In this document: one piece after another, positions 20,130 to 54,348 of the stretch
How the letters are laid out: each line of letters starts with the position of its first letter
Position numbering within the stretch: the first letter of the stretch is position 1
NCBI GenBank assembly: GCA_037481835.1
Contig: JBBFKW010000013.1
Location: forward strand, 84,576 to 148,575
Length of the DNA stretch: 64,000 nt
DNA from: Desulfosoma sp.
GTDB taxonomy: Bacteria; Desulfobacterota; Syntrophobacteria; Syntrophobacterales; DSM-9756
Direction of reading: 5' to 3'
Program-made: the position numbers and the translations under genes
The notes under the pieces: generated by a model
What the model saw: the letters and a program-made list of their open reading frames with translations, nothing else
The model's database searches: none
Told to the model about the DNA's origin: nothing

Positions 20130-23100
20130 TCATTGCCGAGCAGCGGAAGTGTCGGGCTGCTGTTCGGGAGCCGGCGGGTTTGGGATGACGACGTGGCGGC
20201 GCACAACGATGGCACAGGCTCTGGCCACGTTGGCTTTCATGGAGTGGAGCACGCGGATCGACCGCTCCACCCATTCCATGACCGAAGCGCGCGAGACCCC
20301 GGGGACGGGGCTCGCCAGGGACCGTTCCGCATTGGCCCGCGCGGCTCGTATCAGATCATCAATGGATTCATCAAGCTGGCGCCGGGCCGGGGCGATGAGG
20401 GTTTCCAAGTGGGCCGCGACACGTTCCGGATCCCTTCGGGCGGCAGACAGAATGCGCCACGCGTCTTCGAAGAGAGACCGTGCGGAATGAATCCGAGCGA
20501 GGTCTATCCCGTTTTGTCCGGCTGCCACCAAAAGCCGGTCACAGTATTTCATGAGGTCTTTGGCCGTTTTTCCGGTGAAGCCCCGGCTTGCAGCCTCGGC
20601 GGCGACATGGGAAATCATCGCCAAATCGTCCAGGAAAGACATGTAGTTCATGGCCGGAGAAAGCGGCGTAAAGGGGCCGAGCCGAACATGGGCAATATTT
20701 TCTCGTCGCGTCACATGGCGAGCGGCTCCGCCGGGGCTGGCGTAAGGGCCCTCCACGGCGGCATTGACCCGTGATTGGATTCGGGCCATCTCTTCCGCTA
20801 GAGCGGCTTTTCGGGCTGGATCCGTTTCCATGACGAACCGTCGGTGGATGTCGTCCAGCTGGAGTTCCAAGCGGGCTCGCAGTGTTGGGTCGGACGAGAG
20901 CCGGCGCAGTTCGTCCAGCCGTTCAGTGACCCTTTCCATGGGAACGCCCGCGTCCCGAGCGTAACGTTCCACGGTCTCCCGAGGGGTGCCTTCCCGGAGC
21001 ATCCGGGCCAGGGTATTGAGTTCCGTTTCTCGGACCATGCGCTGCTCCACTTCGCGGGCCGCACGGCCTGGAAGATCGGCAAAGAAGTGGAGACGCCGCG
21101 GGTCGGAAAAGATGTCGGCATCCAGCAGCTGACGCCATGCGGATCCATACCGTCTTTCCATTACGGTTATGGCGTAGTTGCGATAGAAGGTGGCGTCGGG
21201 TCCCAAGAAGCTGATATCCACATCGCTGGTCATGGCGTTGGTGCCGGTCCGTTGCATGTGGGGGGGCCCGATGGTCCGGCCCGTGAGTCCCGGGCCCAGT
21301 TCGCTTGCCGCATTTTGCATTTCCTCCCTCAACAATTCAACTTGGCGCAGCCGCCAGGCCTGCATCCGGTTCATGACTTCCACCCCTTGATCCCCGGACC
21401 GCGCCAAAGCGCGGGCCACATCGGACCATTTGCCGCCGTGGAGGACGATGACCGCACCGGCGTTCCCGCCCATTTCATTGAGCTGGCGGGCCACCAAGGC
21501 GGCGTATTCCTGAGCGGCCTGGCTTCCTTCCCCGAGAGCGCGCCGCATCAAAGCGGCGTGTTCCGCGATCTGAGCCGCGGCTCTGTGTCGAGTGATGTCG
21601 GGAAACAGGCGGGCGACGCTGTCTGAGTCCCGCATGAGCTCTCGAGAGAGGCGGCTTTGCATCTCCGGGGCGGCCCTTTGAAAAACCTCCGCGCCGGCAC
21701 GGCGCCCTCCGGATCGAAAAGCACTTTTGATAGCGTCCCCCAGTAGGGGCACAAAGCCCACGAGGGCCATGACCGTCTGAAGCTTCCCTTCGCGGCCTCC
21801 CGTCTGCCACATTTTGTGAATACCGGCGGCCACATCGCGGGCGTCTGCAATCTGCCCCACGATGGGAATGCATCCCACGAGAATCTGCCCGGTTGTTGCA
21901 GCGACTGAGGGTTCCTCGAACCAATCGCCGAAAATGGCGCCCACGGCGAATTCTTCCACAGGGTTCAGGCCCGTGGAGTATTCCGTGTGGCGCCACCCCT
22001 CGGGGGTGCTTTCAAGCCATGCCCCGTCGGATGTGAGGATCTGTTCCACCTCCACTTGGGTGCCGCGCCGGAGGATATAGCCGTACCCGTCATCGTTGGG
22101 GCTGGTCAGATCCCTGAGGTGCACCTGGGGATCCAGTTCGTAGATATGCAGCCAATTGTCCGGAGCGCGCAAAACGACACGAGCTCCACGGAGCCGGAAA
22201 AGCCTTGCGAGCATTTCCCGCCGGCCCCGACTGTCGTTGTAATATCCATGCAATTCGCCGATTTCCCATCCGACGCGCACCGTGGTGTTCCACAATCGGC
22301 CGTGGATTTCGCCGATCACGCGACCGCGCACATCATGGAAGTGCCCGCCCATCTGGCGCCTGAGCTCAAGCATTTCCTCGAGGGTTTTCAACTGGGCGTG
22401 GACCAAAACCCTCTCATAATCAAGCCAGAAGCGCTGGATGGACATCACGTCCCGGAACCGCACACGACCGTTTTCGTGGGGGAATTGCCATTGACCCGGG
22501 CCCCAGCGGTAAATGAGCAAGGGCTGTGGCGGGTATCCGTCGGGAATGGTGAGGATCATGGGAAAGCTGATGAGTTCCCGGTAAAGTCTCTGTTTGTAGA
22601 GGCGCACCTCGGCCGGTGCTTCGGCTTCGGTTCCCACGACGTCTTCCGCCAGAACGCGGTCGGTGGGGATGACGAGAAAGCGATTCTCCCGGTCGATGGC
22701 CATTTGGCGGCCCGCCTGTTCCAGGAGCCGTTCTCGACGACGGACGTCTGTGGACAAGATGGACGAACGGATCGGATCAATGAGTCGCTCAAGGCGTTCC
22801 ACTTCACGCCGCGCATCCAAGCCGCGTTGGATCTGCCGGACCTGGTCCTGGGAAAGGACGGAGACCAGGTGGGGAAAATCGCGGTTGAGGACTTCCTGTG
22901 CGTCGATTCGCGCCGGGGCGGGCGCCGCGCGCCCGGAGGATCGACGGCCGTGATCTTTCATCACGACCGAAGGCTTCCCTTCACCTAAAATGTTTTGCGC
23001 GACGGGCCTGTTTCCGGCCGAAAAAGACTTGTCCGGGATGGCGTGCGTTTCGTTCGAGCTCATGGCATCCAATGCCTCCGCGATATGCTCGGCTTGGATT

Positions 23101-24353
23101 TCCAAGGGGTCATCGGGGTGACTGACGGCAAGGTTCCATCCCAGGGTCCGGGCGGCGACGGATCCTTCCGCGTGCTGGACGACGTGGACGAGTTCGTGGG
23201 CCAGAAGCCGACGGCCTTGGGAATTTTGGGGAGTGTAGAGGCCGTTTCGAAAATAGATGTCTCTGCCCCACGTGAACGCTCGAGCTCCCACGGTTTGAGC
23301 CAAGGTGTCCGATCGGGCGTCCTGATGGATTCTGACGGGCGACAGGTCTGCACCTAGATGATCTTCCATGTCGTGACGCAGGCCCAGGTCCAAAGCCGAA
23401 CCACGCCCTTCGGACCACTCCAAGGCCCGCATCACGACGGCCGCGATGGGTGCCGACAGCTCCGGTGCGTTTTCCTTCTTTCGCTGCAAGGGGGCGAAGG
23501 GTTCCGGAGTGGGCGGGCCGCCGATGGGATGGGGCGAACCGGGCCCGAAGCCCCATTCGGAGGGAAGGAGGGCACCGAGGTCCACGTGGGCCCCAAACAT
23601 GACACTGTCCGGGCCGGTATAAAGTTCGACGTGAAGCCAATCCACACCGGGGATGGGCACAGGACGGCCGTTGAGGAGGGGGAGCACCCGGTTTCGTGCT
23701 GAAGGATTGGAAAGCACCCCCGCCAAGGTTCCCCCCCCGATTACGGCGAAGGCACTGACCACCATCGCCCTTTCTCCGGGAGAAGCATGGCCCCAGACCC
23801 CCAAGGCATGGTCTCTCGCCGATTCCTGCAAATTTTCCAGCATGCGGGCTACCGGCTCTGTAGCCGCCAAAGCGCGGGCCACGTCGCCCAACGTTCCTTC
23901 GCGGGGTGGGGACGGACCCGGGGAAGGCGCCCGCACGGAAGTGCCCTGAGACGGGGTTGGGGGCTGCGTGAGGGAAGGCAGCCATGGGGCGGTTTCCACC
24001 CTTTCGGCGCCTTCCATTACAAGGTTGTGCAGGCGTGTTGGATCCAGTTGCTCCGCCATGAGCCATTCAATGCGTCGCTCAATGTCCGGATCCAGCTCCA
24101 GTCTCAAGGATGAAAGCCCCAAATGATAACGGGAAAACGGTTCGGGGGGCTGCAGCACGGAGGAGACTCCCAAGGTCAGTCGCGGTGCAAAGGAAGCCGA
24201 TGTTGGTCCGTCGTCGGGCGAGCGCTGGAGGACCGCTCCGGGAGAGCCTGAAGCTCGGCACGGGCGACTGCCTTTCCGGCCGATTCCTAAAGCGGCGGTA
24301 TCTTTCGTTTGTGAGCCTCTCGTGGGTCTTTTGTCATGATTCAGGGAGGGCAT
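20130..24353 (-). CDS. DUF4157 (eCIS core domain) polymorphic effector, 1407 aa, with pre-toxin-like segment and putative nucleotidyltransferase C-terminus
   Basis: MEDHLGADLSPVRIH...ARAFTWGRDIYF...LLAHELVHVVQ (~23175-23395); GCIPIVGQIADARD...LVGFVPLLGDAIK; GTNAMTSDVDISF. Confidence 0.85.
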   Translation of the reverse strand: MPSLNHDKRPTRGSQTKDTAALGIGRKGSRPCRASGSPGAVLQRSPDDGPTSASFAPRLTLGVSSVLQPPEPFSRYHLGLSSLRLELDPDIERRIEWLMAEQLDPTRLHNLVMEGAERVETAPWLPSLTQPPTPSQGTSVRAPSPGPSPPREGTLGDVARALAATEPVARMLENLQESARDHALGVWGHASPGERAMVVSAFAVIGGGTLAGVLSNPSARNRVLPLLNGRPVPIPGVDWLHVELYTGPDSVMFGAHVDLGALLPSEWGFGPGSPHPIGGPPTPEPFAPLQRKKENAPELSAPIAAVVMRALEWSEGRGSALDLGLRHDMEDHLGADLSPVRIHQDARSDTLAQTVGARAFTWGRDIYFRNGLYTPQNSQGRRLLAHELVHVVQHAEGSVAARTLGWNLAVSHPDDPLEIQAEHIAEALDAMSSNETHAIPDKSFSAGNRPVAQNILGEGKPSVVMKDHGRRSSGRAAPAPARIDAQEVLNRDFPHLVSVLSQDQVRQIQRGLDARREVERLERLIDPIRSSILSTDVRRRERLLEQAGRQMAIDRENRFLVIPTDRVLAEDVVGTEAEAPAEVRLYKQRLYRELISFPMILTIPDGYPPQPLLIYRWGPGQWQFPHENGRVRFRDVMSIQRFWLDYERVLVHAQLKTLEEMLELRRQMGGHFHDVRGRVIGEIHGRLWNTTVRVGWEIGELHGYYNDSRGRREMLARLFRLRGARVVLRAPDNWLHIYELDPQVHLRDLTSPNDDGYGYILRRGTQVEVEQILTSDGAWLESTPEGWRHTEYSTGLNPVEEFAVGAIFGDWFEEPSVAATTGQILVGCIPIVGQIADARDVAAGIHKMWQTGGREGKLQTVMALVGFVPLLGDAIKSAFRSGGRRAGAEVFQRAAPEMQSRLSRELMRDSDSVARLFPDITRHRAAAQIAEHAALMRRALGEGSQAAQEYAALVARQLNEMGGNAGAVIVLHGGKWSDVARALARSGDQGVEVMNRMQAWRLRQVELLREEMQNAASELGPGLTGRTIGPPHMQRTGTNAMTSDVDISFLGPDATFYRNYAITVMERRYGSAWRQLLDADIFSDPRRLHFFADLPGRAAREVEQRMVRETELNTLARMLREGTPRETVERYARDAGVPMERVTERLDELRRLSSDPTLRARLELQLDDIHRRFVMETDPARKAALAEEMARIQSRVNAAVEGPYASPGGAARHVTRRENIAHVRLGPFTPLSPAMNYMSFLDDLAMISHVAAEAASRGFTGKTAKDLMKYCDRLLVAAGQNGIDLARIHSARSLFEDAWRILSAARRDPERVAAHLETLIAPARRQLDESIDDLIRAARANAERSLASPVPGVSRASVMEWVERSIRVLHSMKANVARACAIVVRRHVVIPNPPAPEQQPDTSAARQ

Positions 24354-24464: not shown

Positions 24465-27404
24465 TCATTTCTTTTCCGGCTTCAGCCAAAGGCTGATTGC
24501 CATGACGGCCAAGGCGGCCAGAACAGGCAGCACAAACCAGAGGTTCCGGAAAAACAGCCCCGTAGCCCCACAGGCCAGCAAGGCCGCCACGCTCGAGACG
24601 ACGAAAATCGGATAGATTCGAGGTTCATGTCTTTGAGCGTGGATCAGGTGGTAGACGAAAGCCAACGGTGTTCGCAAAACCCAGCGCGGCATCCGCCGGG
24701 AGAAAAAGCCTCCCATGCGCTTTCGTCCCTGGAGGGCGTTCCGAAAGATGCCCCATACCAAGAGGTAGGTCTGGCAGGCGTATTCGGCGAGAATGTGCGC
24801 CGGTACGGCTGCGTTGGGGCCCACGACCGTCTGGGAACCCATGGCCTTTTCGTGGAGGTCGGCGCCGCAGTCTTTGACCGCCGCTCTTGCCTGGGCGGCC
24901 CTCTCTTTGGCTCGGGCTTCCACGGCCGTTTGGTTGGTGCCCGAATTCACGCCGGTTGCGTCCGAGATGGTCCCCCACGTGATTTCCTGGAAGTAGAGAT
25001 CCTCGTAGAGGGTTCCCAAGTCCCCACACACGGCGCTGTACTGGGCCGCCGTGATGAAACGGTCCCGAAAGGCCGTAAGCTTTTCCATCCAGGCGGTTTT
25101 CTCGATATCTTCACAGGGTGCCTGCGGCCGCGTATCCAGCAGGTCTCTCCAGGCGCGGAGCAACCCTTTCTTGTGCGGCAGGGGGCAGCCCTCAAAATGG
25201 GCGTCCAGGGTTTCCATGGTGATGACGTCGGGAAGGTTCCAGCGCTGCCGCCACAGGCGCTCCCGAGCGCTCGCGTCGAGAAGACTGCGCACGATTTGGC
25301 AAATTCCGTCCAGCCTTCCCCAAAGGATGTCATTGGCGCGCCAATCACGTCGGAAAAAGGCGGCGAAGTGAGCCATATCATCGCCTGTGACTTTCGACGC
25401 GGGAGCGAGGGCGCTCAGACCGATCTGGGCGTCTTTCGGGCTGATCCGTACGTATTCGATCTCGTCCAGTTCGTGGATCCGAGCGGCGAACTCCAACGGG
25501 TAAAAGGCGCGCTCCAAAATGACGAAATCGGCAATGGGGTCTCCGGCTTCGGGGATGGATCGAACAATCAGGGACAAAGCTTCATGAACCACCGTAAGGA
25601 TGGTCCTTTCAGTGCCTCGGGGCGCCGGGAGCCGCTCCAACCGGCTCGGTTCCGCCTGCGTGATCCAATGCCACGCATCAAATGCGGCTCGAGAGAGAAT
25701 TTCCGACCCGAGCGGTCCTGCTTGGCGGTCGGCGACGAGACGGACATGCATCGCGGGATCCGTTGCAGCGGGTGCCGAGGGGAGGCCGTCCACGAGGGGG
25801 CGCCAGATGGGGTTTTGCGCATCCACAAAAGCGGCGAAGGCTTTGAGCACAAGATCCGCCGTCATCCCTTCGCCGCCGTGTGTCCTTTCGAAGAGGGTGT
25901 CCCGGAGCAGGAAGAGCCGGTTTCGGATCATCTGGAGCGCCTTGATCACCCTGCCCACGGCTTGAACCGCTTCGAGCAGGCCCTGGGGAGCGGGGCCGCC
26001 TGCATCATCGAGGCGTTCGTAGAGGTGATAGAGCCCATGAAAGGCGCAGCGCACATGCCATTCCACGTCGTACGGAAGGAGCTGGGGCACGGACGCCGCC
26101 GTCAGGTCCCGGGGCGGTTCCAAAGTGTGGGTGAAGTGCAGAAGCATCTGCCGAAGAGCATCGAAAAGGCGCTTTCGAACGGGATCCTTGATTTCCGTTT
26201 TGGCCGAAGGGACGTCGTCGCTGTCCGAAACCATGAGCGTGCATAGGCCGTCGATACGGACCCTGCGGTAGACTTCAAAAGAGGTGCCGTCGGCGGTTGG
26301 ACCGGTCGAGGGAGTTTCTCCGCGGGCGATCTGAAGGTAGTTTTCCTTGATGCGCCGGAGCCAGCGGATTCGGGCATTGTGCGCTTTCAGGTTTTCCAGG
26401 TCTTCTCCGATGCTTTCATGGGACGGGATGGTGCTCAGCGAAGCCACGGCCACCCGGAAAGGGTTTTGAAGGCGCCGGGATGCGTCGTCGGTGAGCGCGG
26501 TGAAATGCTCGGGGTCGGGCTCCACGTAAAACAGGCGCCGATCCACGAGCCTATGGGGCATCCGGTAGAAGATGGCCTCCAGGACGGGACCGAAAGGTTT
26601 GTTGTCCAAAACGCCTCCATCCACGTACACATGATGGCGCGGTTTGAGACCGCTCGCCGCCTCCAGCGCGTCCCGAACTTTTTCGCGCCGGTCTTCGGGC
26701 AATTGGTCCAGGGAAAATGGAGGGAAAGCCACAGGAAACGTGGAGGTGATTCGGGCTACGGAGGCGAGGATGCAGGCCCGCAGGGACACATCGACTTCTT
26801 TGCCGGACGGCACGTGCCCTAGGCCGAGCATCTTCCGCCCCGGGCGGTGCTGCAGTCGGAAGACGGTGCGATGGGTCTTGTCGTCGATGCGTCCGCCCAG
26901 CGAATCCCAGGATGTGCTCACAATGCCTTCCAGGTTCGTCCCGGTGATGAAAACATCCATTTCGCCGGGGCTGGCATCACGGACATCGGTCGGGGTCAGG
27001 ATGCGCTGAAAGGCTTCTTCCAGCCTCTTTTGGTAATAACCCTCGCCGTCCAGAAGCGAGACGGCCTCGTCCGCTGCGGACACCGGGCGCATGAGTCGCC
27101 CGAGATCCCCGTGTTTTCTCCACAGATCGGCGGTTGAGGTGAAATCGCCTCCCGATTCCAGAGCGGCGGCGAGGAACAGACCGTTGATTCCTCCCGCCGA
27201 GGTTCCCGCCACCACATCCACAACGGCATCGGCGTCCAGCAGCTGGAGCAGAGGCCCGAAGGGCCCGTGCCCCCTCACCAGATCGAAGAAAGCCCGCGTG
27301 ACCCCGTTTTCATAGACGGCCAAGGAGACGCCGCCGTACAGCACCAGGGCGATGCGAATCTCCCGACTGCGGGTTCCCTGTGCTCGTGTGCCTTGAAGAG
27401 CCAT
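24465..27404 (-). CDS. Patatin-like phospholipase (DUF3376-type) with C-terminal TM helices
   Basis: LVLYGGVSLAVY glycine loop, GTSAG nucleophile elbow, DGG catalytic Asp, HFAAFFRRDWRANDILWGRLDG; hydrophobic C-terminus. Confidence 0.9.
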   Translation of the reverse strand: MALQGTRAQGTRSREIRIALVLYGGVSLAVYENGVTRAFFDLVRGHGPFGPLLQLLDADAVVDVVAGTSAGGINGLFLAAALESGGDFTSTADLWRKHGDLGRLMRPVSAADEAVSLLDGEGYYQKRLEEAFQRILTPTDVRDASPGEMDVFITGTNLEGIVSTSWDSLGGRIDDKTHRTVFRLQHRPGRKMLGLGHVPSGKEVDVSLRACILASVARITSTFPVAFPPFSLDQLPEDRREKVRDALEAASGLKPRHHVYVDGGVLDNKPFGPVLEAIFYRMPHRLVDRRLFYVEPDPEHFTALTDDASRRLQNPFRVAVASLSTIPSHESIGEDLENLKAHNARIRWLRRIKENYLQIARGETPSTGPTADGTSFEVYRRVRIDGLCTLMVSDSDDVPSAKTEIKDPVRKRLFDALRQMLLHFTHTLEPPRDLTAASVPQLLPYDVEWHVRCAFHGLYHLYERLDDAGGPAPQGLLEAVQAVGRVIKALQMIRNRLFLLRDTLFERTHGGEGMTADLVLKAFAAFVDAQNPIWRPLVDGLPSAPAATDPAMHVRLVADRQAGPLGSEILSRAAFDAWHWITQAEPSRLERLPAPRGTERTILTVVHEALSLIVRSIPEAGDPIADFVILERAFYPLEFAARIHELDEIEYVRISPKDAQIGLSALAPASKVTGDDMAHFAAFFRRDWRANDILWGRLDGICQIVRSLLDASARERLWRQRWNLPDVITMETLDAHFEGCPLPHKKGLLRAWRDLLDTRPQAPCEDIEKTAWMEKLTAFRDRFITAAQYSAVCGDLGTLYEDLYFQEITWGTISDATGVNSGTNQTAVEARAKERAAQARAAVKDCGADLHEKAMGSQTVVGPNAAVPAHILAEYACQTYLLVWGIFRNALQGRKRMGGFFSRRMPRWVLRTPLAFVYHLIHAQRHEPRIYPIFVVSSVAALLACGATGLFFRNLWFVLPVLAALAVMAISLWLKPEKK

Positions 27405-27418: not shown

Positions 27419-29458
27419 TCACTCCGCCTCGAGAAGCACCGCGGGTATTTGGCGGCTCAGCTTTGTGTATTCCAGTTTCAGCCCTTCCATGACGTCTTGC
27501 CAGGATACGGGCCGGGCGGCTTCCAAGGCCAACACGGCGGCGGCCAGCACGGCGTTTCGGATATGACCGCCGCACACGTCCGCGTGGGCGGCCAAAAGGT
27601 TCATCTGAGCCGGGTGCAAGGCGTGTTTTTCGCCAAGGTGGGTTTTCCACAAGGCCCGGCGCTCTTCCGGACCGGGAGCCGGAAAATCCACCACGACGTC
27701 GATGCGGCGGCTGAAAGAGGAGTCGAATCGCGTGCGGCTGTTGCTCGTCAGAAGGATGATGCCTCTGTAGTCTTCGATCCTCTGCAGGAGGTAGTTGGTT
27801 TGCGCATTGGCGAACCGGTCGTTGGCGTCTTTCACGTCCGTCCGCTTGCCGAAAAGGGAATCGGCTTCATCGAAAAGCAGAATCACGTCCGCCTGTTCGG
27901 CGGCGGCAAGAAGCCGGGAAAGCTGTTTTTCCGTGTCGCCAACGTATTTGCTTGTTACGGCGGCAAGGTCCACGCGATACAAGGGGAACCCCAGGCGGGT
28001 GGCGAGCCAGGAGGCCGCCAGGGTTTTCCCCGTTCCGGAAGGACCCACGAAAAGGGCCCGGACCCCGGCTTTATAGGAGGCTTGCATGGTAATTCCCAGG
28101 ATGGGACCCAAGTCTTCCCGATGGCGGCACCGGGCTTCCAGAAGGTCGAGTTTGCGGCGCGTGGGTTCCGAAAGGACCAGAGCCGATTCCGGCACCCGAT
28201 CCGGAATGGGCTGCGCCAGAGTTTCCAGGCCGTCCCCGTGAAAAGCCGCTCGGCGGATGTCTTCCTTGTCGATTTGCGACCGCCCTCGCACCTGTGCTTC
28301 CATAAGGGCCAGTGCACTCAAACGGCGGATGCGATCGACGCCGTGCAGATGCGTCGCCGCGAGGGATTCCGCAGCCTCAGGATCGATACCGGATTCCAGC
28401 CACAGTCTCCGGCGTTCTTCCTTTCCCGGAAGAGGCGCCCACCATTGGGCCAGGGGGCCGCAGTCCGCCTCCGCAACCCCGTCCGGGCCGCAGACGGCCA
28501 AAACCGGCCCTGAATAGCCTTCAATGGAGGGCAGCCGGTGGACGAGTCCAGGTCCGGATTCCAAAACAAACACGGGAAGAAGCCGCTCCAGGCGGCAGTA
28601 AAGTCCGAAGCCGAGAAGCGGCAGGAAGCCTCCGGGAACATAGACGGCGCGCCGCCCCAAAGCCTGGGCGATGAGTTCCGCGGCCAATCGGGCATCGCCT
28701 CCCGACGAGGATCGGATGAGAAGTCCGGCGCTGGAGTGTTCCAATGCCCGGGCATGAGCCCGGGCTTCTCGCCGAAAGGTCTCCGGCATGTTTGGAGGCA
28801 GGGACGTGGGGGCAAGAGACGTTCCCGGCCAGGGTTTTCCAACGCCTCGCAGGGACAGGGCCAAAGGAAGGGGAATGGTCAACTGCTGATCGCACAGGGG
28901 CAGACTGTCGTCCGTTCGGTGCAATAAACCGTTTCTAGCGGCCGGTCCCGCCGCCAGAAGCGCCGTCGGGGAATCGCCTTCGGCAAGGTGCAGAAAAGCG
29001 CCCAAAGTCTGAGCCATCAATCCCACGCTGGGGCGGGCCGATCCGATGTGCGGCTGCAAAAAGGACACGATGTCAGCCGTATGGGGATCCTCCTCGCAAG
29101 CCAGACAGAGGGCGGCCGCAAGGGTTTCCAGAGGGGATAGAGACAGGTCTTCGCCGAGCGTCGCCAGCCGGGCGTCTTCAGGCCGTGGGCGCCGCAGGGA
29201 TTCCCGGATGGCCTCACGCCATTGGGCCACATAGGGAAACCGCTGTAAGACGCCGTGTAGCGCCGATTCCTGAGGGCGTTCCGGTGTTCGGCCCGTCTTT
29301 TCAAAATACAGAAATCCGCAGGGCCACAGGGCGAGGAAAGCCAGAGACGCTGATTCGGCGCCGACCGTGACGTGAGCATCGGGCAGGCCTTTTTCGGGCC
29401 GCTTCCAGCCCGAACCGCTTCCGACGTTATGATGGTTGGGAATGGTTTGAGGCCTCAT
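27419..29458 (-). CDS. eCIS AAA+ ATPase (Afp15/Pvc15-like); start uncertain
   Basis: GPSGTGKT Walker A, SKYVGDTEK, LLFDEADSLFGKR Walker B, DRFANAQTNYLLQRIE. Confidence 0.92.
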   Translation of the reverse strand: MRPQTIPNHHNVGSGSGWKRPEKGLPDAHVTVGAESASLAFLALWPCGFLYFEKTGRTPERPQESALHGVLQRFPYVAQWREAIRESLRRPRPEDARLATLGEDLSLSPLETLAAALCLACEEDPHTADIVSFLQPHIGSARPSVGLMAQTLGAFLHLAEGDSPTALLAAGPAARNGLLHRTDDSLPLCDQQLTIPLPLALSLRGVGKPWPGTSLAPTSLPPNMPETFRREARAHARALEHSSAGLLIRSSSGGDARLAAELIAQALGRRAVYVPGGFLPLLGFGLYCRLERLLPVFVLESGPGLVHRLPSIEGYSGPVLAVCGPDGVAEADCGPLAQWWAPLPGKEERRRLWLESGIDPEAAESLAATHLHGVDRIRRLSALALMEAQVRGRSQIDKEDIRRAAFHGDGLETLAQPIPDRVPESALVLSEPTRRKLDLLEARCRHREDLGPILGITMQASYKAGVRALFVGPSGTGKTLAASWLATRLGFPLYRVDLAAVTSKYVGDTEKQLSRLLAAAEQADVILLFDEADSLFGKRTDVKDANDRFANAQTNYLLQRIEDYRGIILLTSNSRTRFDSSFSRRIDVVVDFPAPGPEERRALWKTHLGEKHALHPAQMNLLAAHADVCGGHIRNAVLAAAVLALEAARPVSWQDVMEGLKLEYTKLSRQIPAVLLEAE

Positions 29459-46983: not shown

Positions 46984-47819
46984 CCCTCCTCAAAGCGAAT
47001 GAGGTCGCGAAGGCTTTTCCCCGATCCCACATCCGCTCGAAACCCTCCGGAAACGCCTGCTTTGACTTTGCCGCCCATGCCAAACTCCAGCCCCGTGGGC
47101 GCCGGAGTCGATACGGAAAAACCGGTTTTCAGGCTCACCTCCGCCCCGAAGGCCACAGTCCCGATGCCGGGACGCCGCAGGCTCTCCACGTCGTTTATCC
47201 GGGCAAGGTCCTTTGCCGCTCGAGGATCTCCCGCCTTGGCGGCACTTTGGGTGAGGCTTTCGTCGGGATCCACATCCATGAGCGTGGCCTGGGTGCGTTC
47301 CTGTACCGCCTCCCGCTGCGCGGCGCTCACCTCAGCCTCTTCGAACCGCCGTTCCTGCTGGCTCAGCGTGAGGGCTACCGAGGAGCGAAGCGGGATGCCT
47401 TCCGGGGCGAAGAAGTCCAGGGTCTCCTTGTAACTGGAGATGAACCCCGTAAATTTCACCGTGCCCCATTCGAAGACGACGACGGCGGGGATTTTCTTGT
47501 TTCGGTCCCGGGCCTGGCGGGCGCCCCGGTTGAGCACGGGATCCATCATGCGGGCGATGGGCTGCGTGTGTTCGCGAACATCGGTGCCGGTGAGGGTTGT
47601 GTCGAAGATCAGTTCCATGGAAAGTTCCGCCGTCGCGTCGGTCACATGCTGGGCGGCTTGGGCTCCCCGACCCTTTTGGACCCGGTTTGTCAGGGTCATC
47701 TGGAGTGTTTCCGGGTTGAAATGCACGGACACGCGTCGCGCCTCCTGATCGGATGCGGACAAGTTTCGGCCGTTTTCGTCGGTGAGCGGCGTCAGGACGG
47801 CTTTGACAGGTTCCGGCAC
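46980..47819 (-). CDS. Tube initiator (Afp7-like CIS tube protein)
   Basis: VHFNPETL, LSMELIFDT, VVFEWGTVKFTG...ETLDFFAPEGIPLRS; degenerate LysM-like segment. Confidence 0.85.
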   Translation of the reverse strand: MPEPVKAVLTPLTDENGRNLSASDQEARRVSVHFNPETLQMTLTNRVQKGRGAQAAQHVTDATAELSMELIFDTTLTGTDVREHTQPIARMMDPVLNRGARQARDRNKKIPAVVVFEWGTVKFTGFISSYKETLDFFAPEGIPLRSSVALTLSQQERRFEEAEVSAAQREAVQERTQATLMDVDPDESLTQSAAKAGDPRAAKDLARINDVESLRRPGIGTVAFGAEVSLKTGFSVSTPAPTGLEFGMGGKVKAGVSGGFRADVGSGKSLRDLIRFEEG

Positions 47820-47821
47820 GT

Positions 47822-48316
47822 TCAGCTCCCTTCCCGTTCCAACCCTTCGTGGACGAAATGCACTTCTTCAATGCCCACATCGGCGGCGCGGGCGTTGAAA
47901 TCCGGGGCCCTGAACTTGACGGGCAACGCCCGGCGCAGCCGCCATCGAAGGGCCCCTTCGTGGGATTCCGGGTCCATCCCCATGTCCAGGAGTGTGATGA
48001 CCACATCCAGCCGAAAGGCGTAGCCGCCCTTGGCCACCAGTTCGAACCAGCGCCAGAGATCCCGGGAGGATGTGATCCCCCGCCGAAGGATGACCGTTCC
48101 AAAAGATACGCGGCCGGCCCGGTGCACCGCCCCGTAATTTCGACCGCCTTCCTTGATGACCTTGGGTTCCATGGAGGCATCCAACCCGCTGCATTCGGCA
48201 AATCGGCCGCTGCACAAGGGCACGGGCTCCCCCCCGCCGTCGGCATCGGAAGCGCTGGTGAAAAAATCGACGCGGAAGCGAAAAACCGGCAAGGGGTATC
48301 CGGGATGAGACGCCAT
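47822..48316 (-). CDS. Tail tube protein 2 (T4 gp19-like, Afp5-like)
   Basis: FRFRVDF, FAECSGL, EGGRN, ILRRGI, ALPVKFRAPDFNA, IEEVHFVHEG. Confidence 0.92.
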   Translation of the reverse strand: MASHPGYPLPVFRFRVDFFTSASDADGGGEPVPLCSGRFAECSGLDASMEPKVIKEGGRNYGAVHRAGRVSFGTVILRRGITSSRDLWRWFELVAKGGYAFRLDVVITLLDMGMDPESHEGALRWRLRRALPVKFRAPDFNARAADVGIEEVHFVHEGLEREGS

Positions 48317-48330: not shown

Positions 48331-49884
48331 TTAAGAGGCCACCGAGACGGAGCCGGAAGGTTCCATGGCGAGGACCACCTGGATGGCTTCCACCGGCACG
48401 GCGGGTTGCACGACGATTCGGGCGATCAGGCGGCCGGAATCCACATCCTGCTGTGTCATGGTGTCGGTGCCGCAGGTCACGTGGAAAGCGTTTTGGACGT
48501 CCGTCCCGCCCAGCCCTCCGGCAAGGTACACGGCCTCGAGAAGGCTCGAGAGTCCCTGTTCCACGGTCCGCCACGACCGAGCCGATGCATTTTCAAAGAC
48601 GAGGCTCTCCCCGAGGCGTCGAGCGGCCTTCAAAATGAAACCCATGAGGCGACTCACGCAGCCGGGACCGTGCGCCGGCTCAAGGCTCGTCGTTCGATCG
48701 GAGGCGAGCTGGGTCCCTCGGGGAGTGGATTCAAAGAGGCAGAGGCGCCGTTTCATGGCATGAACGGAGTCTGGAACTTTTTCTTTTTCGTTCAGAGAAA
48801 GGACCGGATCCAGGCTGGAGACGGCCGCGGTGAGTGATCCTGCAGCGCTGCGGAACGTGCCCTTCTTGAGGGCGTTGGCGGCGAGAAGTCCCATGAGGGG
48901 CCCATCGGGAGCCAGGAGATTTTCCGCGTCTTCGGCATCTCCCAGCCATGGGAAAGCGCACTGGAAAAAGGCGCTGGCACATCCCCCTTCGTCCAGGCCG
49001 CGCCCGAGAATCGTCCCGCACAGTTCGGCCCACCAGAAAGGGCCGCACGCGGGATGAGGCGGCGGAAGGGCGCAGACGAGCTGCCATTCTCGGGCGTTTT
49101 CCACCATCCATGAAAGGAGGCAGTGGATCGCCCGCCCCCAGAGCGCGTAGCCCACGGGGTCATGCAGAGGGCGAAAAGGCGGGGCCGTTCGTCGATAAGG
49201 GGTCGGAACGTGAGGGGCGACACATTCCACAAAGGATTCCGGGGCGGGTCTTTCCGGCATGAGCACCGAAACGGGCTCCACCGGCGCGGCGCTCAGATAG
49301 GGAAGGTCGGGTAAGGCGACGAGGGCCGTATCCGCCAGAGCGGACCCGAGCTGGATCCCATGCTGGGAAAGCGGAGATTCCCCCGTCCTCGGCAGGGCGG
49401 CAAAGGGACGCTCGGCAAGTTGAGCCCGGTCGGCGGCCCCAACGAAAGGGCCGTTTCTCCCGTAAAGCAAACGCTCTAGTGTGGCCATGCGTTCGGCCTC
49501 CCCGGCGCCGGGGGATAACGGATCGGCCATGGAAACGACGTACGCTTTGATGCCGCCTTGGGCGAAAAAGGCTTTGACGGCTCGCCCCAGTGGATAGAAA
49601 GCCTCCCGAAGGGGGGTCGATTGCCCGGCTGCTTGCGGCCAGAGAAAAAACCGGCGAAAGGTTTCCCAGGAATCCACCGGTACGGGAACATCCCTAAGAT
49701 GGATTCCACCGGAAGGGGGACACACGCGATCCAACAAGCCCTGTTGCCGGTACCAGGGCTCCAGAGGATCGGGCAGGCGATCCAGGGAACGCAGCGGGGC
49801 CAGCCCCACAAAAAGCCCCACATCCATGCGGTAAGGGTGGACCGCCGGGTTTCCCGACTTTTCTTCAAACCAGATGGAGGGCAT
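48331..49884 (-). CDS. Divergent second tail sheath protein
   Basis: RMDVGLFVG...PVPVDSWETF...AVKAFFAQGG; C-terminal LVFE...AFHVTC...QDVDSGRLI sheath motifs. Confidence 0.8.
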   Translation of the reverse strand: MPSIWFEEKSGNPAVHPYRMDVGLFVGLAPLRSLDRLPDPLEPWYRQQGLLDRVCPPSGGIHLRDVPVPVDSWETFRRFFLWPQAAGQSTPLREAFYPLGRAVKAFFAQGGIKAYVVSMADPLSPGAGEAERMATLERLLYGRNGPFVGAADRAQLAERPFAALPRTGESPLSQHGIQLGSALADTALVALPDLPYLSAAPVEPVSVLMPERPAPESFVECVAPHVPTPYRRTAPPFRPLHDPVGYALWGRAIHCLLSWMVENAREWQLVCALPPPHPACGPFWWAELCGTILGRGLDEGGCASAFFQCAFPWLGDAEDAENLLAPDGPLMGLLAANALKKGTFRSAAGSLTAAVSSLDPVLSLNEKEKVPDSVHAMKRRLCLFESTPRGTQLASDRTTSLEPAHGPGCVSRLMGFILKAARRLGESLVFENASARSWRTVEQGLSSLLEAVYLAGGLGGTDVQNAFHVTCGTDTMTQQDVDSGRLIARIVVQPAVPVEAIQVVLAMEPSGSVSVAS

Positions 49885-49894: not shown

Positions 49895-50335
49895 TTAATC
49901 GAGTTCCAGAGCTTCGGCGGACAGCACCAATTCTTCCATGGCCACGTCCCCGCCCCCTTTGGCGGCCAGCGTGGGGCCGGTCCATTTGAGCGGGATGACG
50001 CCGCGCAGGTTCCACCGCTGCACTTCGTTGTGGCTTTCATCCATGAGGATCACGGATACGTTCCGCTGAGCGCGAACCCCTTCCTGGCGGACCTGCTTGA
50101 TCCAGTCCCAAAACTCCTTGGAATCGATGATCCCCCGTTTGAGGGTCACGTCCCCCACCTTGTGGATGCCGGGAACCTTGAGCACATGGTTCAAAGGGTA
50201 AGTCCCTTCGCGGTATTCGGAGATGGTGATTTCCGTATTGAGTCCAGACACATCGGAAAAGCCGGCAACGGCGATGCCGTCAATTTCAACGGCAAAGTTG
50301 AACGCTCCGTAAGGCACCAATCGATCTGCGGCCAT
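49895..50335 (-). CDS. Tail tube protein 1 (T4 gp19-like, Afp1-like)
   Basis: PYGAFNFAVEIDG, FSDVSGL, YREG, VTLKRGI, KWTGPTLAA. Confidence 0.95.
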   Translation of the reverse strand: MAADRLVPYGAFNFAVEIDGIAVAGFSDVSGLNTEITISEYREGTYPLNHVLKVPGIHKVGDVTLKRGIIDSKEFWDWIKQVRQEGVRAQRNVSVILMDESHNEVQRWNLRGVIPLKWTGPTLAAKGGGDVAMEELVLSAEALELD

Positions 50336-50478: not shown

Positions 50479-52875
50479 TCATGCCCGGGCATCCGCCGTT
50501 TTTTGGCCGATGCGGAAGATGACGAATTCTGCAGGCTTAAGAACGGCGACCCCGATGAGGCAGATCAACCGGCCGTTGTCCAGATCGTCCTGGGTCATGG
50601 TCGATCGGTCACAGCGCACGAAATACGCTTCTTCCGGACTGGCTCCCAGCAGTGCGCCGCTTACCCATTGGTTGTAGAGGAAAGCGGAGACGGTGGCCCG
50701 CACATTGCCCCAGAGCCGTTCCCCGTTGGGTTCGAAGACGACCCACTGGGTGGAGCGGTCGATGGAATGTTCCAAGAAAATGAAGTAGCGGCGCACATTG
50801 ACGTATTTCCACTCAGGATCCGAAGAGGCGGTTCTCGCTCCCCACACCCGGAAGCCTCGGCCGGGAAAGAACCTCAGACAGTTGACCCCCAGGGGGTTGA
50901 GCACTTGCTGCTGCGCTTGGTTGATCTCCCGCTCCAAGCGGATGGCTCCGCGCACCACTTCGTTGGCGGGCGCTTTCCAGACGCCGCGCTGGACGTCGTT
51001 TCGGGCGTAGATGCCCGTAACGAAGCCGCTTGGTGGGACGGCGATTTCCTGGGGAATGCGGTCGTTGCCGGGACGGGCCAGGGGATTGGAGACCATGACC
51101 CACGGATAGTAGTAAGCGGCGTAGGTCGAGTCCATGGTTCCCCGGATTTCCCGCACCTCCTGCATGTCCACACCCGGCGGACTGTCCAGTACAGCGATCC
51201 GGTATCGCATGTTTTCCGCGTGGGTGATGAGGGACTGCTGAATGGCGCTGTATTGGGCCGTGTCGGAATATCCCGGAGCCGCCACGATGGCGATGTCGTC
51301 GATGGCTTCCAAGAGCTTGAGCGCATCGGTGTAAGCAACGGCCCCGGGGATGTTGGAGGTGTTTGTCGGCTCCGCGCCGTCGTTGCCGCCCCTTACGGCG
51401 ATATCTCGACTGGTGCCGGATCCCAGAAGACCCTGCCGGAGATCGAAAGGATGGACGTCTCCTTCGACCTGGAGCGCGTAAGGGTTTTGAAGCGCTTCCG
51501 ATCGCCGCGACGGCCTTTGGGCCAGGACGGATCCGATCCACCGGGGATGAAGGGGCGAAAAGCCCACATCCTCGTAGACCCGCACAGTGTTGTCGGCATC
51601 CCGACTTTCCAGGTTCATCAGGATGAGCGTTGACCCGGCGGGAAGGGGGGTGGAGGTGTTCAGGGCAGTGGCCCGGTCGGAGCCGCCGACCCACCCGGAA
51701 GGCCCCAGTGCGTGCCGCACATAATAGGCGGTCCCTTCGGCGGCACGGCCCCGGGCTTCTTCGGCCGGAAGTCCCAGAGCCGTCCGAGCCGGCGTTTCTT
51801 CGGCGCGCACGGCGGCGCCCGTTCCCGTTTCTGTGGTGCTCAAAAGAAGGCGTCCCGTTGCGGGATCAGTCGTGGCGCGCACGGCGATGCCGGCGTCCTG
51901 AAGCAGGGCGTCGATTTCGGCCGCCGAAACGTCATCCAGGTTCACCACATTTCCTGTGCCTACGGCGCTCTGATCCGCAGCAAAACCCAACGCTGAAAGG
52001 GCCGACACACTCACCATCGCCCCGGTGCCACGGGCGTCCGTCCCCAAAACGAGGCGGGGGCCCCCTGCCACGCGGGCGTAGCCTCGACGTATCCGCGTAT
52101 TTATGAAGGCGGCGAGATCCGCCAGCGTCGTAATCCCCGCAGGGATGGCAACGGCCTGGTCCAAACCGCCCAAGGTCACCCGAAGGACAGTATCTGCCGG
52201 AACGTCCACGGGGTCCGCCACGACCTCGCCTTGGATTTCCGCGGGAGTGCCGTGAAAAGAGACGCTGGAAGTGCCTGCGGCGGTGGTGAGGGTGAGTTGG
52301 TCCCCGTCGTTCAGGCGGAAGGGCGGACTGCCGCCCATGAGGACGGCAGGTTGAGGCGTCGTGCTCTGAATGCGCAGGAGCGATCCCAAGGGGGCTTTGT
52401 CCAAGGTGGCCGAAGTCACGGGCACGGCTTTTTCGGTGACGGTGATCCGCCCGTTTAGGCCCGAACCGGGCATGCGGGCTGTAAAACGCACCCGGACGGT
52501 TGCGAAGTCCACCACAAGGTCCGAGCGGGCGATTCCCGTAGAAGACACGGTCCCGCCCCCGTCGGTGCGCGGAACGAAGGTTCGAGCGATGTAGAGACGC
52601 GAACCTCCATTGTCGAAGAACGCCCGCACGGCATGAGCCACATAGTTGGTCTTTTGCGGGTCCTCGTCGGCGGCGGCCGAAAAGGAGAGGTTTTCCAATC
52701 CGCCGAAAATCCTCTCGAATTCGCCGAAGCTGGTGACCATGACCGGGGTTTCCGTCAGCGGCCCCTTGCGGGTTGGGCCGACGAAGGCCGTGGTGCTCGT
52801 GCCCACCCCTTCGATGGACTTGGGACGAAAGCTCACTTCTTCCACGTACACTCCGGGAGCTAAGTATTCCGGCAT
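50479..52875 (-). CDS. Major tail sheath protein, 798 aa
   Basis: MPEYLAPGVYVEE, FFDNGG, YYPW, PPSG...RGVWKAPAN, VWGART, YVNVRR, WVVFEPN, KPAEFVIFRI; AGGAGG RBS. Confidence 0.96.
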   Translation of the reverse strand: MPEYLAPGVYVEEVSFRPKSIEGVGTSTTAFVGPTRKGPLTETPVMVTSFGEFERIFGGLENLSFSAAADEDPQKTNYVAHAVRAFFDNGGSRLYIARTFVPRTDGGGTVSSTGIARSDLVVDFATVRVRFTARMPGSGLNGRITVTEKAVPVTSATLDKAPLGSLLRIQSTTPQPAVLMGGSPPFRLNDGDQLTLTTAAGTSSVSFHGTPAEIQGEVVADPVDVPADTVLRVTLGGLDQAVAIPAGITTLADLAAFINTRIRRGYARVAGGPRLVLGTDARGTGAMVSVSALSALGFAADQSAVGTGNVVNLDDVSAAEIDALLQDAGIAVRATTDPATGRLLLSTTETGTGAAVRAEETPARTALGLPAEEARGRAAEGTAYYVRHALGPSGWVGGSDRATALNTSTPLPAGSTLILMNLESRDADNTVRVYEDVGFSPLHPRWIGSVLAQRPSRRSEALQNPYALQVEGDVHPFDLRQGLLGSGTSRDIAVRGGNDGAEPTNTSNIPGAVAYTDALKLLEAIDDIAIVAAPGYSDTAQYSAIQQSLITHAENMRYRIAVLDSPPGVDMQEVREIRGTMDSTYAAYYYPWVMVSNPLARPGNDRIPQEIAVPPSGFVTGIYARNDVQRGVWKAPANEVVRGAIRLEREINQAQQQVLNPLGVNCLRFFPGRGFRVWGARTASSDPEWKYVNVRRYFIFLEHSIDRSTQWVVFEPNGERLWGNVRATVSAFLYNQWVSGALLGASPEEAYFVRCDRSTMTQDDLDNGRLICLIGVAVLKPAEFVIFRIGQKTADARA

Positions 52876-52912
52876 GGTTCCGCCTCCTGGTTGATGGTGA
52901 TCCCTCATGTCC

Positions 52913-53752
52913 TTATGTCGTTGAAACGGTTTTTCGGATCCTTTCCGTTCGCCCGGCCTTGAGCGTCAGGGCATGCTCGCTTCGAAGAAAACTTTCGTGT
53001 TCCTTTTCCAGCCGGTCCGGATCGGGGAAGCCCACCGCCTCGGCATCCCACACCACCTGCATTCGCGCCGGGGTCTCGTAAACCAAGACGGGTTCTTCCG
53101 TATCGTCTCCATGGCCGTCTCCGGTGCCGTTGGTCCCGCCTTCCGAAGAGCGGGCAAAAGGGATGGCCGGGACGACCACGAGACCCTCGCCGCGGGCGTC
53201 CGTCATGCCGCTGGCCAAAAGGACGGCTCCCGAGCTGTCCGTGATTCGAAGGAGGGCTCCCGATAAGGGCACGGATCGGCCGTCCACCGAGCGATCCAGC
53301 GAGACACGCACGAGGCTCCACCGAATGCCGGGCACTGATGCGGCCGGGGCCGGAAAGAGCGACACCCGGGCGGGCTGAAAGAGGGAATGCTCCACATCGG
53401 GGTGCGCCGGGTCGGGGTCTCGGGGAAGCAAAAGGGTGAAGGATCGGGCAAGGTAACGGCGGGAAGGGTCTTCGACAGTGCCGCGAAAGGGAAGGGCTTG
53501 GAGCGGCGGGTCTTGCGGAGGAGCCCGAAAGGCCTGACCGTGATGTTCAAGGCCCGCGGCTTTCTGGATGATGTATCGACCGGAAGGTTTTCTCATGAGC
53601 CCCACCCCGGGAATATCGACGCATAAGGTCCTGTTTACGGGAAAACCCGTGGTGAGGTCGACGAAATCCAAGGCGCCGAGAATGCGTCGAATGCGCCATT
53701 CCACGAAACGGAGGCGGGAAAGCCCCTGGGGATCCACGCTCATGGACGGCAT
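52913..53752 (-). CDS. eCIS hypothetical protein (beta-sandwich / carboxypeptidase-regulatory-like)
   Basis: TGATG-coupled to DUF4255 and directly upstream of the sheath; GMTDARGEG motif. Confidence 0.65.
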   Translation of the reverse strand: MPSMSVDPQGLSRLRFVEWRIRRILGALDFVDLTTGFPVNRTLCVDIPGVGLMRKPSGRYIIQKAAGLEHHGQAFRAPPQDPPLQALPFRGTVEDPSRRYLARSFTLLLPRDPDPAHPDVEHSLFQPARVSLFPAPAASVPGIRWSLVRVSLDRSVDGRSVPLSGALLRITDSSGAVLLASGMTDARGEGLVVVPAIPFARSSEGGTNGTGDGHGDDTEEPVLVYETPARMQVVWDAEAVGFPDPDRLEKEHESFLRSEHALTLKAGRTERIRKTVSTT

Positions 53753-54348
53753 CAGCGCGCCTCCTTTTCACCGAATCCAAAGGCCGATACCGCGACCGGC
53801 CGCCCCTCAGGCTGCGAAACACCCTCGATGGCCACGGGCCGGACCACATAGGCCAAGGACAGACGATAGGGTGGAGCCAGAGCGTCCCACAGGCGCATCA
53901 TGTCTTCGGGGGCGAGATCTTCGGGAAGGATCTGGAGCATGTCTCCCGGGTCCCAGCCGGCTTCGGCCGAGAGCACCGAAACGTCCAAGACGGCGTGCGT
54001 TTCCAAGGTGTGCAGGACCCATGCCGCCAGGATGTGCTCTGTCAAAGGGCTGTCGGCCCAAAAGGTGATGAGATAATGCAGGTCCAGGACAACCGCGGCT
54101 TTCTGCGGTGCGCCATCCGCCCTGATGGGTCTGTTGCGGTGGTGTTCGTTCCAGGTGATGCGATAAAGGTAGAGGCCGACGGTGGGTTCCATGTCGCCGT
54201 CCTGGAGTCTTGCCAATTCGTTGCTTGAAAACACACGAAAGCGACAATCGTGGGGCTGTCGAATCCCTTCGGGCAGCGTTCGAAACGCCCGATCCAAAAA
54301 CGTGGCCAGCGAAGCTCCCACCGAATGGATGGCACTGAAATTGGCCAT
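53752..54348 (-). CDS. DUF4255 tail terminator/cap (Afp16/Pvc16-like)
   Basis: AIHSVGASL, VGLYLYRITWN, LDLHYLIT, LWDAL...YRLSLAYVVRPV. Confidence 0.9.
   Translation of the reverse strand: MANFSAIHSVGASLATFLDRAFRTLPEGIRQPHDCRFRVFSSNELARLQDGDMEPTVGLYLYRITWNEHHRNRPIRADGAPQKAAVVLDLHYLITFWADSPLTEHILAAWVLHTLETHAVLDVSVLSAEAGWDPGDMLQILPEDLAPEDMMRLWDALAPPYRLSLAYVVRPVAIEGVSQPEGRPVAVSAFGFGEKEAR

Follow-up and report, generated by a model that had tools for sequence, protein, structure and literature searches.

We examined a 64,000-nt stretch of a Desulfosoma sp. genome (contig JBBFKW010000013.1 of assembly GCA_037481835.1; hereafter the window, in whose numbering all coordinates are given), in which positions 20130–54348 carry, on the minus strand, 21 genes of a contractile injection system (CIS), all in one direction. 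This locus is almost certainly a complete, single-copy CIS with the PAAR-less, split-spike architecture that dbeCIS calls IIb, and in its PAAR slot it encodes a tail-anchored membrane protein, here numbered g11. An initial annotation of the same DNA had described a complete CIS of about 20 co-directional and often translationally coupled genes. This description was borne out: with starts refined by their Shine-Dalgarno-like context and by aligning relatives, 6 of the 20 junctions were overlaps and 7 further gaps measured 0–15 nt. All 21 open reading frames (ORFs) were intact, and 15 of the genes could be named by family models (Pfam, PHROGs, NCBIfam). The cap, two sheaths, two tubes, tube initiator, hub, spike, gp25, baseplate J and I proteins, ATPase and DUF4157 protein that the annotation had named were all found, while a patatin-like gene (24465–27404), a small ORF (46801–46983) and a gene in the tape-measure slot (29506–31746) had been overlooked. 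The genome searched, 99.37% complete in 38 contigs, contained one DUF4157 gene and one Pfam-detectable sheath. The genes, numbered from the cap, are as follows.

g01, 53752..54348, minus strand: cap/tail terminator (Afp16/Pvc16, DUF4255); Pfam Pvc16_N 5.6e-32
g02, 52913..53752, minus strand: conserved protein of 279 aa adjoining the cap, role unassigned; two transthyretin/CnaB-like beta-sandwiches in the model
g03, 50479..52875, minus strand: large sheath, 798 aa; Phage_sheath_1 4e-27, Phage_sheath_1C 1.5e-14
g04, 49895..50335, minus strand: inner tube protein 1 (gp19/Afp1-5 type); Phage_T4_gp19 5.7e-41, CIS5_fam 1.8e-27, CIS1_fam 1e-15
g05, 48331..49884, minus strand: second, divergent sheath paralogue, 517 aa; PHROG tail sheath 5.8e-12; predicted start
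g06, 47822..48316, minus strand: tube protein 2, 164 aa, probable tube adaptor; Phage_T4_gp19 2.4e-26, CIS5_fam 2.9e-13; predicted start
g07, 46980..47819, minus strand: tube initiator; Pfam CIS_tube 1.8e-19
g08, 46801..46983, minus strand: 60-aa ORF directly ahead of the hub gene, in the Afp6 slot; from position and conservation
g09, 45615..46709, minus strand: gp27-like hub, first half of a split VgrG; Phage_GPD 4.7e-12, VgrG_rel positions 18-350 at 1.5e-24
g10, 44921..45610, minus strand: gp5/gpV-like spike, second half of the split VgrG; Phage_base_V 3.6e-24, VgrG_rel positions 379-541
g11, 43434..44927, minus strand: tail-anchored membrane protein, 497 aa, in the PAAR slot; from hydropathy and gene position
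g12, 42938..43342, minus strand: gp25/Afp9 baseplate wedge; GPW_gp25 9.1e-24
g13, 40724..42934, minus strand: single baseplate J/Afp11; Baseplate_J 1.2e-16, TIGR02243 5.7e-82, PDB 9gtp 4.9e-43
g14, 38358..40724, minus strand: Tail_P2_I/CIS12-like baseplate protein, 788 aa; Tail_P2_I 2.9e-10, CIS12_fam 4.7e-36 (under cut-off)
g15, 37474..38361, minus strand: fibre-like protein 1 with a CIS13-type N-terminus; CIS13_fam 3.8e-12 (under cut-off)
g16, 35572..37467, minus strand: fibre-like protein 2; CIS13_fam 6.1e-6 (under cut-off) and BLASTP to g17
g17, 31820..35575, minus strand: fibre-like protein 3, 1251 aa; BLASTP to g16
g18, 29506..31746, minus strand: 746-aa protein in the Afp14 (tape-measure) slot; putative role from gene position
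g19, 27419..29458, minus strand: Afp15-type AAA+ ATPase with a winged-helix domain; AAA 6.7e-23, WHD 1.4e-8
g20, 24465..27404, minus strand: patatin-like phospholipase, candidate cargo or accessory lipase; Patatin 1.5e-15, DUF3376 1.9e-24, TIGR03607 7.3e-113
g21, 20130..24353, minus strand: 1407-aa DUF4157/eCIS_core protein, probable cargo; eCIS_core 5.4e-28

The gene content places the locus in the Afp/PVC superfamily, as the initial annotation had it. A sheath and a gp19-type tube are accompanied by gp25, baseplate J and a gpD/gpV spike, and the two genes that separate CIS from phage tails and tailocins, the DUF4255/Pvc16 cap and the AAA+ ATPase, are both present. Against the sequences of solved structures, the large sheath g03 matched 8bky (4e-105), 9ezm (2e-104), Afp3 (2.3e-50) and Pvc2 (8.5e-47). 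The second sheath, g05, had no Pfam match and was linked to g03 by BLASTP (7e-13). Next to the cap, the start of g02 shares 1 nt with the stop of g01; g02 had no match in Pfam, PHROG, NCBIfam or the PDB sequences, and its AlphaFold2 model, with a predicted local distance difference test score (pLDDT) of 84.8, gave generic matches only (Foldseek 3.7e-5; VIA Z 9.9 over 91 residues at a root-mean-square deviation, rmsd, of 2.3). The small ORF g08 likewise had no family match (Pfam, PHROGs, NCBIfam), and ORFs of 54–64 aa with a similar basic C-terminal pattern stand in the same place in many of 61 loci. At its C-terminus, the spike g10 carries the motif YTPGAGN, which was invariant in an alignment of 32 sequences.

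The initial annotation had counted three fibre-like paralogues. This holds in part: g15 and g16 share a CIS13_fam N-terminus, and g16 and g17 are 25% identical over 388 residues by BLASTP (E 4e-14), but g15 had no BLASTP link to either of them. In 49 distant loci, g15 is conserved over its full length (median coverage 0.95, identity 39%), while the last fifth of g16 is variable, being alignable in a fraction of 0.36 of these loci versus 0.84–1.0 for the rest of the protein. None of the three fibre-like proteins had a hydropathy window of at least 1.8, and thus none shows a transmembrane helix of the kind found in the Cis13 of the thylakoid-anchored CIS (tCIS). Neither g14 nor g16 had a significant match among the PDB sequences.

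Within the superfamily, the portion of Chen et al. 2019 (PMC6899500) accessible to us diagnoses IIb by a split spike, a single baseplate-J gene, divergent Afp12/13 and no PAAR. The same portion gives afp11 as single in Ia, Ib, IIb and IId, divergent afp12/13 as a trait of IIa and IIb, and afp6 as confined, within lineage II, to IIb. The four diagnostic traits were recovered here. The spike is divided between g09, which covers positions 18–350 of VgrG_rel, and g10, which covers 379–541; one gene matched Baseplate_J/TIGR02243; and the PAAR family (PF05488) had no match anywhere in the genome, in agreement with the earlier claim that PAAR is absent. The afp12 and afp13 counterparts are divergent, with matches to CIS12_fam (4.7e-36) and CIS13_fam (3.8e-12 and 6.1e-6) that lie under the curated cut-offs, and the conserved 54–64-aa ORF in the afp6 slot is a candidate afp6. 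The locus is distinct from Afp/PVC, as the initial annotation had proposed, but its subtype is not a new one. The unnamed genes specific to IIb have good candidates here in g02, g11 and g18.

Among plasmids, the best Afp11 match was a locus of Rhodococcus opacus (290 bits, over 96% of the query), followed by pWB1 (190) and the IId system of pSCL4 (180); in the Afp11 tree, which holds no IIb-labelled sequence, pWB1 sits on a branch 3.8 long. We take pWB1 to be IIa from our own reading of the columns of Table S3 of Chen et al. 2019 by their tab positions. It has one sheath, two baseplate-J genes, a PAAR gene and no g11 homologue. In the tree, the window groups with three Desulfacinum rows (SH-like approximate likelihood-ratio test, SH-aLRT, 100%), and Desulfacinum (Syntrophobacteraceae, Thermodesulfobacteriota) provided the nearest relatives for every gene, which fits the lineage guessed in the initial annotation, Desulfobacterota. 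The producer is a Desulfacinum-like sulfate reducer. The sequencing runs containing the stretch were hot-spring and sediment metagenomes.

Systems of this lineage have been catalogued before. In supplementary files 8 and 9 of Geller et al. 2021 (PMC8213781), as far as these were accessible, operon 11444 of D. infernum DSM 9756 is entered as an extracellular CIS (eCIS), and the accessible tables of that study score D. hydrothermale as without eCIS. Murali et al. 2023, in the part available, place eCIS in some Desulfobacterota. The available part of Nachmias et al. 2026 describes multi-fibre loci, proposes that P2-I-type baseplates may accept up to four fibres, and finds multi-fibre loci depleted in Desulfobacterota. 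Our literature search, with subscription journals outside it, found no characterised CIS of this PAAR-less kind. Nesting of the locus, with identical gene content, inside a characterised subtype was an outcome the initial annotation had named as refuting its reading, and it comes close to holding, but the subtype is catalogued and not experimentally characterised. In conclusion, the locus itself is ordinary for its kind, and the features that the initial annotation had called atypical are the marks of a subtype that is widespread and catalogued but has had no experimental study.

The architecture recurs far beyond the host. A g11 profile search of 1.84 billion representatives returned 1,511 clusters (50% identity) at E≤1e-3, 602 of them at E≤1e-30; 231 relatives were found at E≤1e-3 among 8,000 candidates scored. 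In a one-genome-per-species collection, 224 of 251 pattern matches encoded a g11 relative. We compared the best 80 of these 224 loci, 51 of which had full 10-kb flanks. The hosts belong to Pseudomonadota (alpha, beta and gamma), Myxococcota, Acidobacteriota, Verrucomicrobiota, Cyanobacteriota, Gemmatimonadota, Planctomycetota, Chloroflexota and Thermodesulfobacteriota. Each of the 51 full-flank loci had the run that begins with the large sheath and ends with g16, including hub, spike, g11, gp25, J, I and g15, and the second sheath g05 also occurred in all 51; the cap, g02 and g17 were each present in 50 of the 51. The gene order was the same in all 12 loci viewed in detail, and wherever a locus was examined, g11 was flanked by the spike and gp25 genes. 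The lack of PAAR, a hydrophobic-tailed neighbour of the spike and three fibre-like paralogues, which the initial annotation had regarded as atypical, are common to 51 out of 51 related loci from about ten phyla, in one gene order, and that view was not upheld. Of 301 genomes sampled evenly across the window's phylum, two had the g11 family, namely the host itself and another member of its taxonomic family, and a genome of the same genus lacked it. Phyla are mixed within clades of the Afp11 tree, which fits horizontal spread.

Among 72,556 plasmids, one carried a g11 homologue, a linear plasmid of R. opacus (NZ_CP095404.2), whereas pWB1, pHBOR03 and pSCL4 had none by tblastn. The R. opacus locus (652413–688865) is built like that of the window, with two sheath genes, a spike split in two, one J gene and a homologue of g11, and is without the three-fibre block; it is a monoderm variant of the subtype. 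Its g11 homologue is 552 aa long, with about 110 residues added after the hydrophobic stretch. In this plasmid, HEAT-repeat and DUF4157 genes are inserted between the second sheath and second tube genes. Double loci were also observed: Aliikangiella maris has two copies on two scaffolds with identical Afp11, and Desulfacinum MAG-79 has the locus on two scaffolds with near-identical Afp11. These may be true duplications or assembly artefacts. Cultivable carriers of the gene set include Thauera, Variovorax, Myxococcus, Polyangium and Aliikangiella strains, and D. infernum DSM 9756 is cultured as well.

The hydrophobic-tailed protein that the initial annotation had noticed beside the spike is g11. 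Its gene overlaps the end of the spike gene g10 by 7 nt. It has no signal peptide, and its C-terminus is a hydrophobic stretch of about 45 residues, with a Kyte-Doolittle maximum of 2.84 at residues 463–507 of the 518-aa ORF. Among the 150 best representatives listed, most were matched by the hydrophobic end of the profile to within about 10 residues of the protein end. Across 24 aligned sequences, the mean pairwise identity of the membrane segment was 0.74, versus 0.36 for residues 22–462, and 14 of its positions were invariant, two Cys and three Pro among them. Conservation this strong points to specific contacts within the membrane rather than to a passive anchor. The soluble domain of about 440 residues had a median identity of 37%, versus 39–56% for the neighbouring proteins. 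Most of the 24 sequences also showed an M-V-x-H pattern at the N-terminus (window positions about 44900–44927), which hints that the extreme N-terminus may matter for function.

By homology and by fold, the g11 family stands apart. No family model matched it in Pfam (even at E≤1), PHROGs or NCBIfam, the PDB sequences gave nothing significant, and in the Atlas it fell in unnamed clusters only. Its structural model has a block at pLDDT of about 75–95 over residues 45–410, a mean of 76 and a predicted template modelling score (pTM) of 0.65. Compared with the PDB by Foldseek, this model had no match at E≤0.001 (best 0.25), the best viral fold (BFVD) reached E 0.032, and a wide VIA-align comparison gave at best Z 7.0 (119 residues aligned, rmsd 3.6), within the usual background. 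The chain 9jg8_C, from a VgrG-bound cargo complex of a type VI secretion system (T6SS), appeared at Z 6.9, not above the neighbouring rows. Likeness of g11 to a PAAR protein was not found, with an hhalign probability of 0.35% and no Pfam match; on the IIa-labelled plasmid pWB1, it is a PAAR gene that lies exactly between gpV and gp25, the slot of g11 here. Fused or longer forms of g11 were absent among 7,999 candidates of 908–2590 residues, which is weak evidence, and the Pfam scan of the locus revealed no chaperone-like gene for the hydrophobic tail. The closest relatives were a protein labelled Desulfacinum infernum in UniRef (87% identity) and the protein of strain DSM 9756 (60%).

Downstream of the fibre genes, the locus turns from structure to probable cargo. 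In g18, the ends are conserved and the middle is rich in Pro, Ser and Gly. It had no Pfam match even at E≤1 and no PDB match, and CIS_TMP (PF19268) matched neither g18 (E≤1) nor anything else in the genome; an Atlas feature score of 0.83 to a CIS_TMP cluster is a weak lead. Together with the gene position and the conserved ends, this lead makes g18 a candidate for the tape measure. In g21, the eCIS_core/DUF4157 domain spans residues 321–397 and includes an HExxH motif, HELVH, at residue 386; no domain was found in the C-terminal 1007 residues, and the PDB sequences gave nothing significant for the protein. Its neighbour g20, which is 14 nt from g19, has a hydrophobic C-terminus (windows starting at residues 1012–1040 of the long ORF), because of which it may be membrane-bound instead of a soluble cargo.

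Five relatives could be followed beyond the fibre block. The AAA+ ATPase lies just past the fibres in all five, and the ends of g18 and the C-terminal part of g17 were each alignable in four. The patatin-like gene and the long DUF4157 gene follow in D. infernum only, and Aliikangiella has two different DUF4157 genes in their place. The structural block is thus fixed and the cargo end variable. We infer that the cargo is the 1407-aa DUF4157 protein, perhaps together with the patatin-like lipase.

These observations suggest how the machine would work. Homology indicates a baseplate of gp25, J, the P2-I/CIS12-like protein and three CIS13-type fibre-like proteins around a two-gene hub and spike. 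As in the rest of the family, the particle would assemble on this baseplate with the assistance of the AAA+ ATPase, an internal protein, perhaps g18, would set its length, and contraction of the sheath would push the tube and spike through a membrane, with cargo marked by DUF4157. The cytoplasmic domain of g11 would sit at the spike/hub end of the baseplate and its tail would insert into the producer's own cytoplasmic membrane, so that the machine would be docked there before firing, as tCIS is through its Cis13 helix and much as the CIS of Streptomyces coelicolor (CIS-Sc) depends on CisA, and the particle would not float free. We place this docking role of g11 slightly below an even chance. 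A tail anchor without a chaperone should enter the producer's membrane, and tCIS demonstrates that a single transmembrane helix can hold a CIS on a membrane. The nearest solved relatives of the sheath and baseplate are the cytoplasmic CIS-Sc and a membrane-bound haloarchaeal system, and the R. opacus variant keeps g11 without a fibre block, both of which argue for docking. The genome encodes no phage lysozyme, which is weak evidence in the same direction. More broadly, a membrane-tethered or intracellular mode, as suggested in the initial annotation, is plausible by analogy with tCIS, CIS-Sc/CisA and the haloarchaeal T6SS-like system.

Several points weigh against docking. The contact of g11 with CIS parts is hypothetical, and the fold of its N-terminal domain gave no functional clue (Foldseek, VIA-align, BFVD). 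Basic residues follow the hydrophobic segment, which could be a single pass or a hairpin. The host is diderm and had no genome-wide match to TssM (PF06761, IcmF-related) or DotU (PF09850), in agreement with the earlier claim that no T6SS membrane complex is present, so that it is not evident how a machine docked on the inner membrane would get past the outer one. Three fibre-like genes, with a variable tip in g16, are what a released, target-binding eCIS needs, and the orthologous operon is filed as eCIS in the accessible files of Geller et al. 2021 (PMC8213781). The last three of these points favour a classical eCIS, assembled freely in the cytoplasm, released by lysis and bound to its targets by three fibres, in which g11 would be a shielded spike tip fired into the target membrane to aid penetration or serve as a conduit for cargo. 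Such a g11 would suit the PAAR slot and the 7-nt overlap with the spike gene, and the invariant YTPGAGN at the spike C-terminus could be its docking site. However, g11 is unlike PAAR, its hydrophobic segment, being C-terminal and without a chaperone, should enter the producer's own membrane, and Rhodococcus has g11 where the fibre block is missing. The Pfam scans of locus ORFs showed no lysis gene and PF00959 had no match genome-wide, holin families not having been searched, which is in line with the initial annotation's statement that holin and endolysin are absent. We regard this released form, the main rival to docking, as possible, yet rather doubtful.

The lack of a lysis cassette in the Pfam scans of the locus and the PF00959 search and the high conservation of the membrane segment, as in pore-forming or oligomeric membrane proteins, would also suit a g11 that lies outside the particle as a membrane accessory factor for firing, release or lysis (CisA-like or holin-like), with its gene within the baseplate block by chance. 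This is unlikely, since g11 keeps its place next to the spike and gp25 genes in every locus examined, is coupled to the spike gene, and has a soluble domain about as conserved as the structural proteins. Least probable by far is a decayed myovirus prophage or R-type tailocin. Phages are the source of the sheath, tube, gp25, J, I and V genes, but the Pvc16 cap, the Afp15-type AAA+ ATPase and the DUF4157 protein are not expected of such an element, all 21 ORFs are intact, and the cap-to-fibres order is kept across phyla. As the initial annotation had stated, head, packaging, terminase and integrase genes were absent from the Pfam scans of the 25 locus and 18 flank ORFs of the 64-kb window, where capsid and terminase genes that would complete a prophage were looked for and not found; lysis genes were absent there too. 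The guanine-plus-cytosine (GC) content of the locus (0.61–0.645) does not set it apart from its flanks (0.60–0.625).

Returning to the docking of g11 at the producer's membrane, a more general statement can be made with some caution: it is conceivable, and we lean mildly against it, that the g11 family is an undescribed core component which takes the place of PAAR throughout a CIS subtype and links the spike end to a bilayer through its exceptionally conserved tail anchor. The locus adds little itself, and its value lies in pointing to the subtype and to this family. The g11 family is the lead to follow, being a testable handle on how PAAR-less machines sharpen or place their spike. If the proposal is true, there would be another means of membrane attachment for a CIS, in addition to CisA, the Cis13 helix of tCIS and the membrane complex of the T6SS, and hundreds of loci filed as 'extracellular' could work from a membrane.

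The surroundings of the locus are those of an anaerobe. Directly upstream of the cap gene, a hydrogenase/Hdr-type block on the minus strand (54827–62771) contains NiFe-hydrogenase large- and small-subunit-like, FrhB-like, HdrA-like (Pyr_redox_2 plus 4Fe-4S) and nitroreductase/ferredoxin genes. These are usual genes of anaerobic energy metabolism, and the CIS locus ends at this block. The other flank encodes a flavodiiron and a radical-SAM protein besides a TPR protein and a chemotaxis cluster. The TPR-repeat protein gene (18556–19989, plus strand) converges on the end of the DUF4157 gene, and the chemotaxis cluster (6051–15660, plus strand) comprises CheR-TPR, a methyl-accepting chemotaxis protein with a dCache domain, a CheA-like protein and CheB, followed by a response regulator and a response-regulator-GGDEF protein. 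Rfam had no match in the window, promoter and terminator scans of both locus ends were at or below the level of shuffles or uninformative, and GC at third codon positions was no guide to which ORFs are real in this DNA of 62% GC.

Among known systems, the canonical T6SS (i–iii) has a TssJLM complex, for which PF06761 and PF09850 had no genome-wide match here (TssJ not searched). With Afp/PVC (Ia), the locus shares the sheath, tube, gp25, baseplate J, cap and AAA+ ATPase. It differs in that, according to the accessible text of PMC6899500, Ia has a one-piece VgrG and lineage I has PAAR and an Afp14 tape measure, whereas CIS_TMP is unmatched here. The Anabaena tCIS, in the portion of PMC8894136 available, is anchored to an internal (thylakoid) membrane through the transmembrane helix of a structural protein of its own, but there the helix belongs to the fibre-like Cis13 and here to a spike-adjacent protein of another family.

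The haloarchaeal T6SS-like CIS (IIa) has a close sheath match (9ezm, 2e-104) and, in the accessible part of PMC11566945, a split spike as here, DUF4157 proteins as cargo and attachment to the cytoplasmic membrane. It differs in having two Cis11 genes (same source), and the IIa-labelled pWB1 also has PAAR and is without g11. The IId system CIS-Sc provides the nearest solved sheath (8bky, 4e-105) and baseplate J (9gtp, 4.9e-43), and the accessible part of PMC12237407 describes its need for a dedicated, cluster-encoded membrane protein, CisA. In contrast to the present locus, IId is described there with a one-piece VgrG, without fibres, and with the CisA gene downstream of the baseplate genes.

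The IIb description of dbeCIS, in the available portion of PMC6899500, agrees in extra conserved genes without known domains, and the small ORF here in the afp6 slot is a candidate for its afp6; a membrane-tailed protein is not mentioned in that portion. The closest system is operon 11444 of D. infernum, as seen in the accessible annotation. This is another species, whose g11 is 60% identical, and it has two extra genes (EJ47DRAFT_00891 and 00892) between patatin and AAA, where the window has 14 nt; the orthologues of g11 and g02 (EJ47DRAFT_00902 and 00911) carry no annotation. The afp labels given by Geller et al. agree with ours, and the patatin gene is among those they list. The operon is an orthologue of our locus, sharing its order from cap to fibres at protein identities of 56–90%, and the downstream AAA+, patatin and DUF4157 genes follow at 65–69%.

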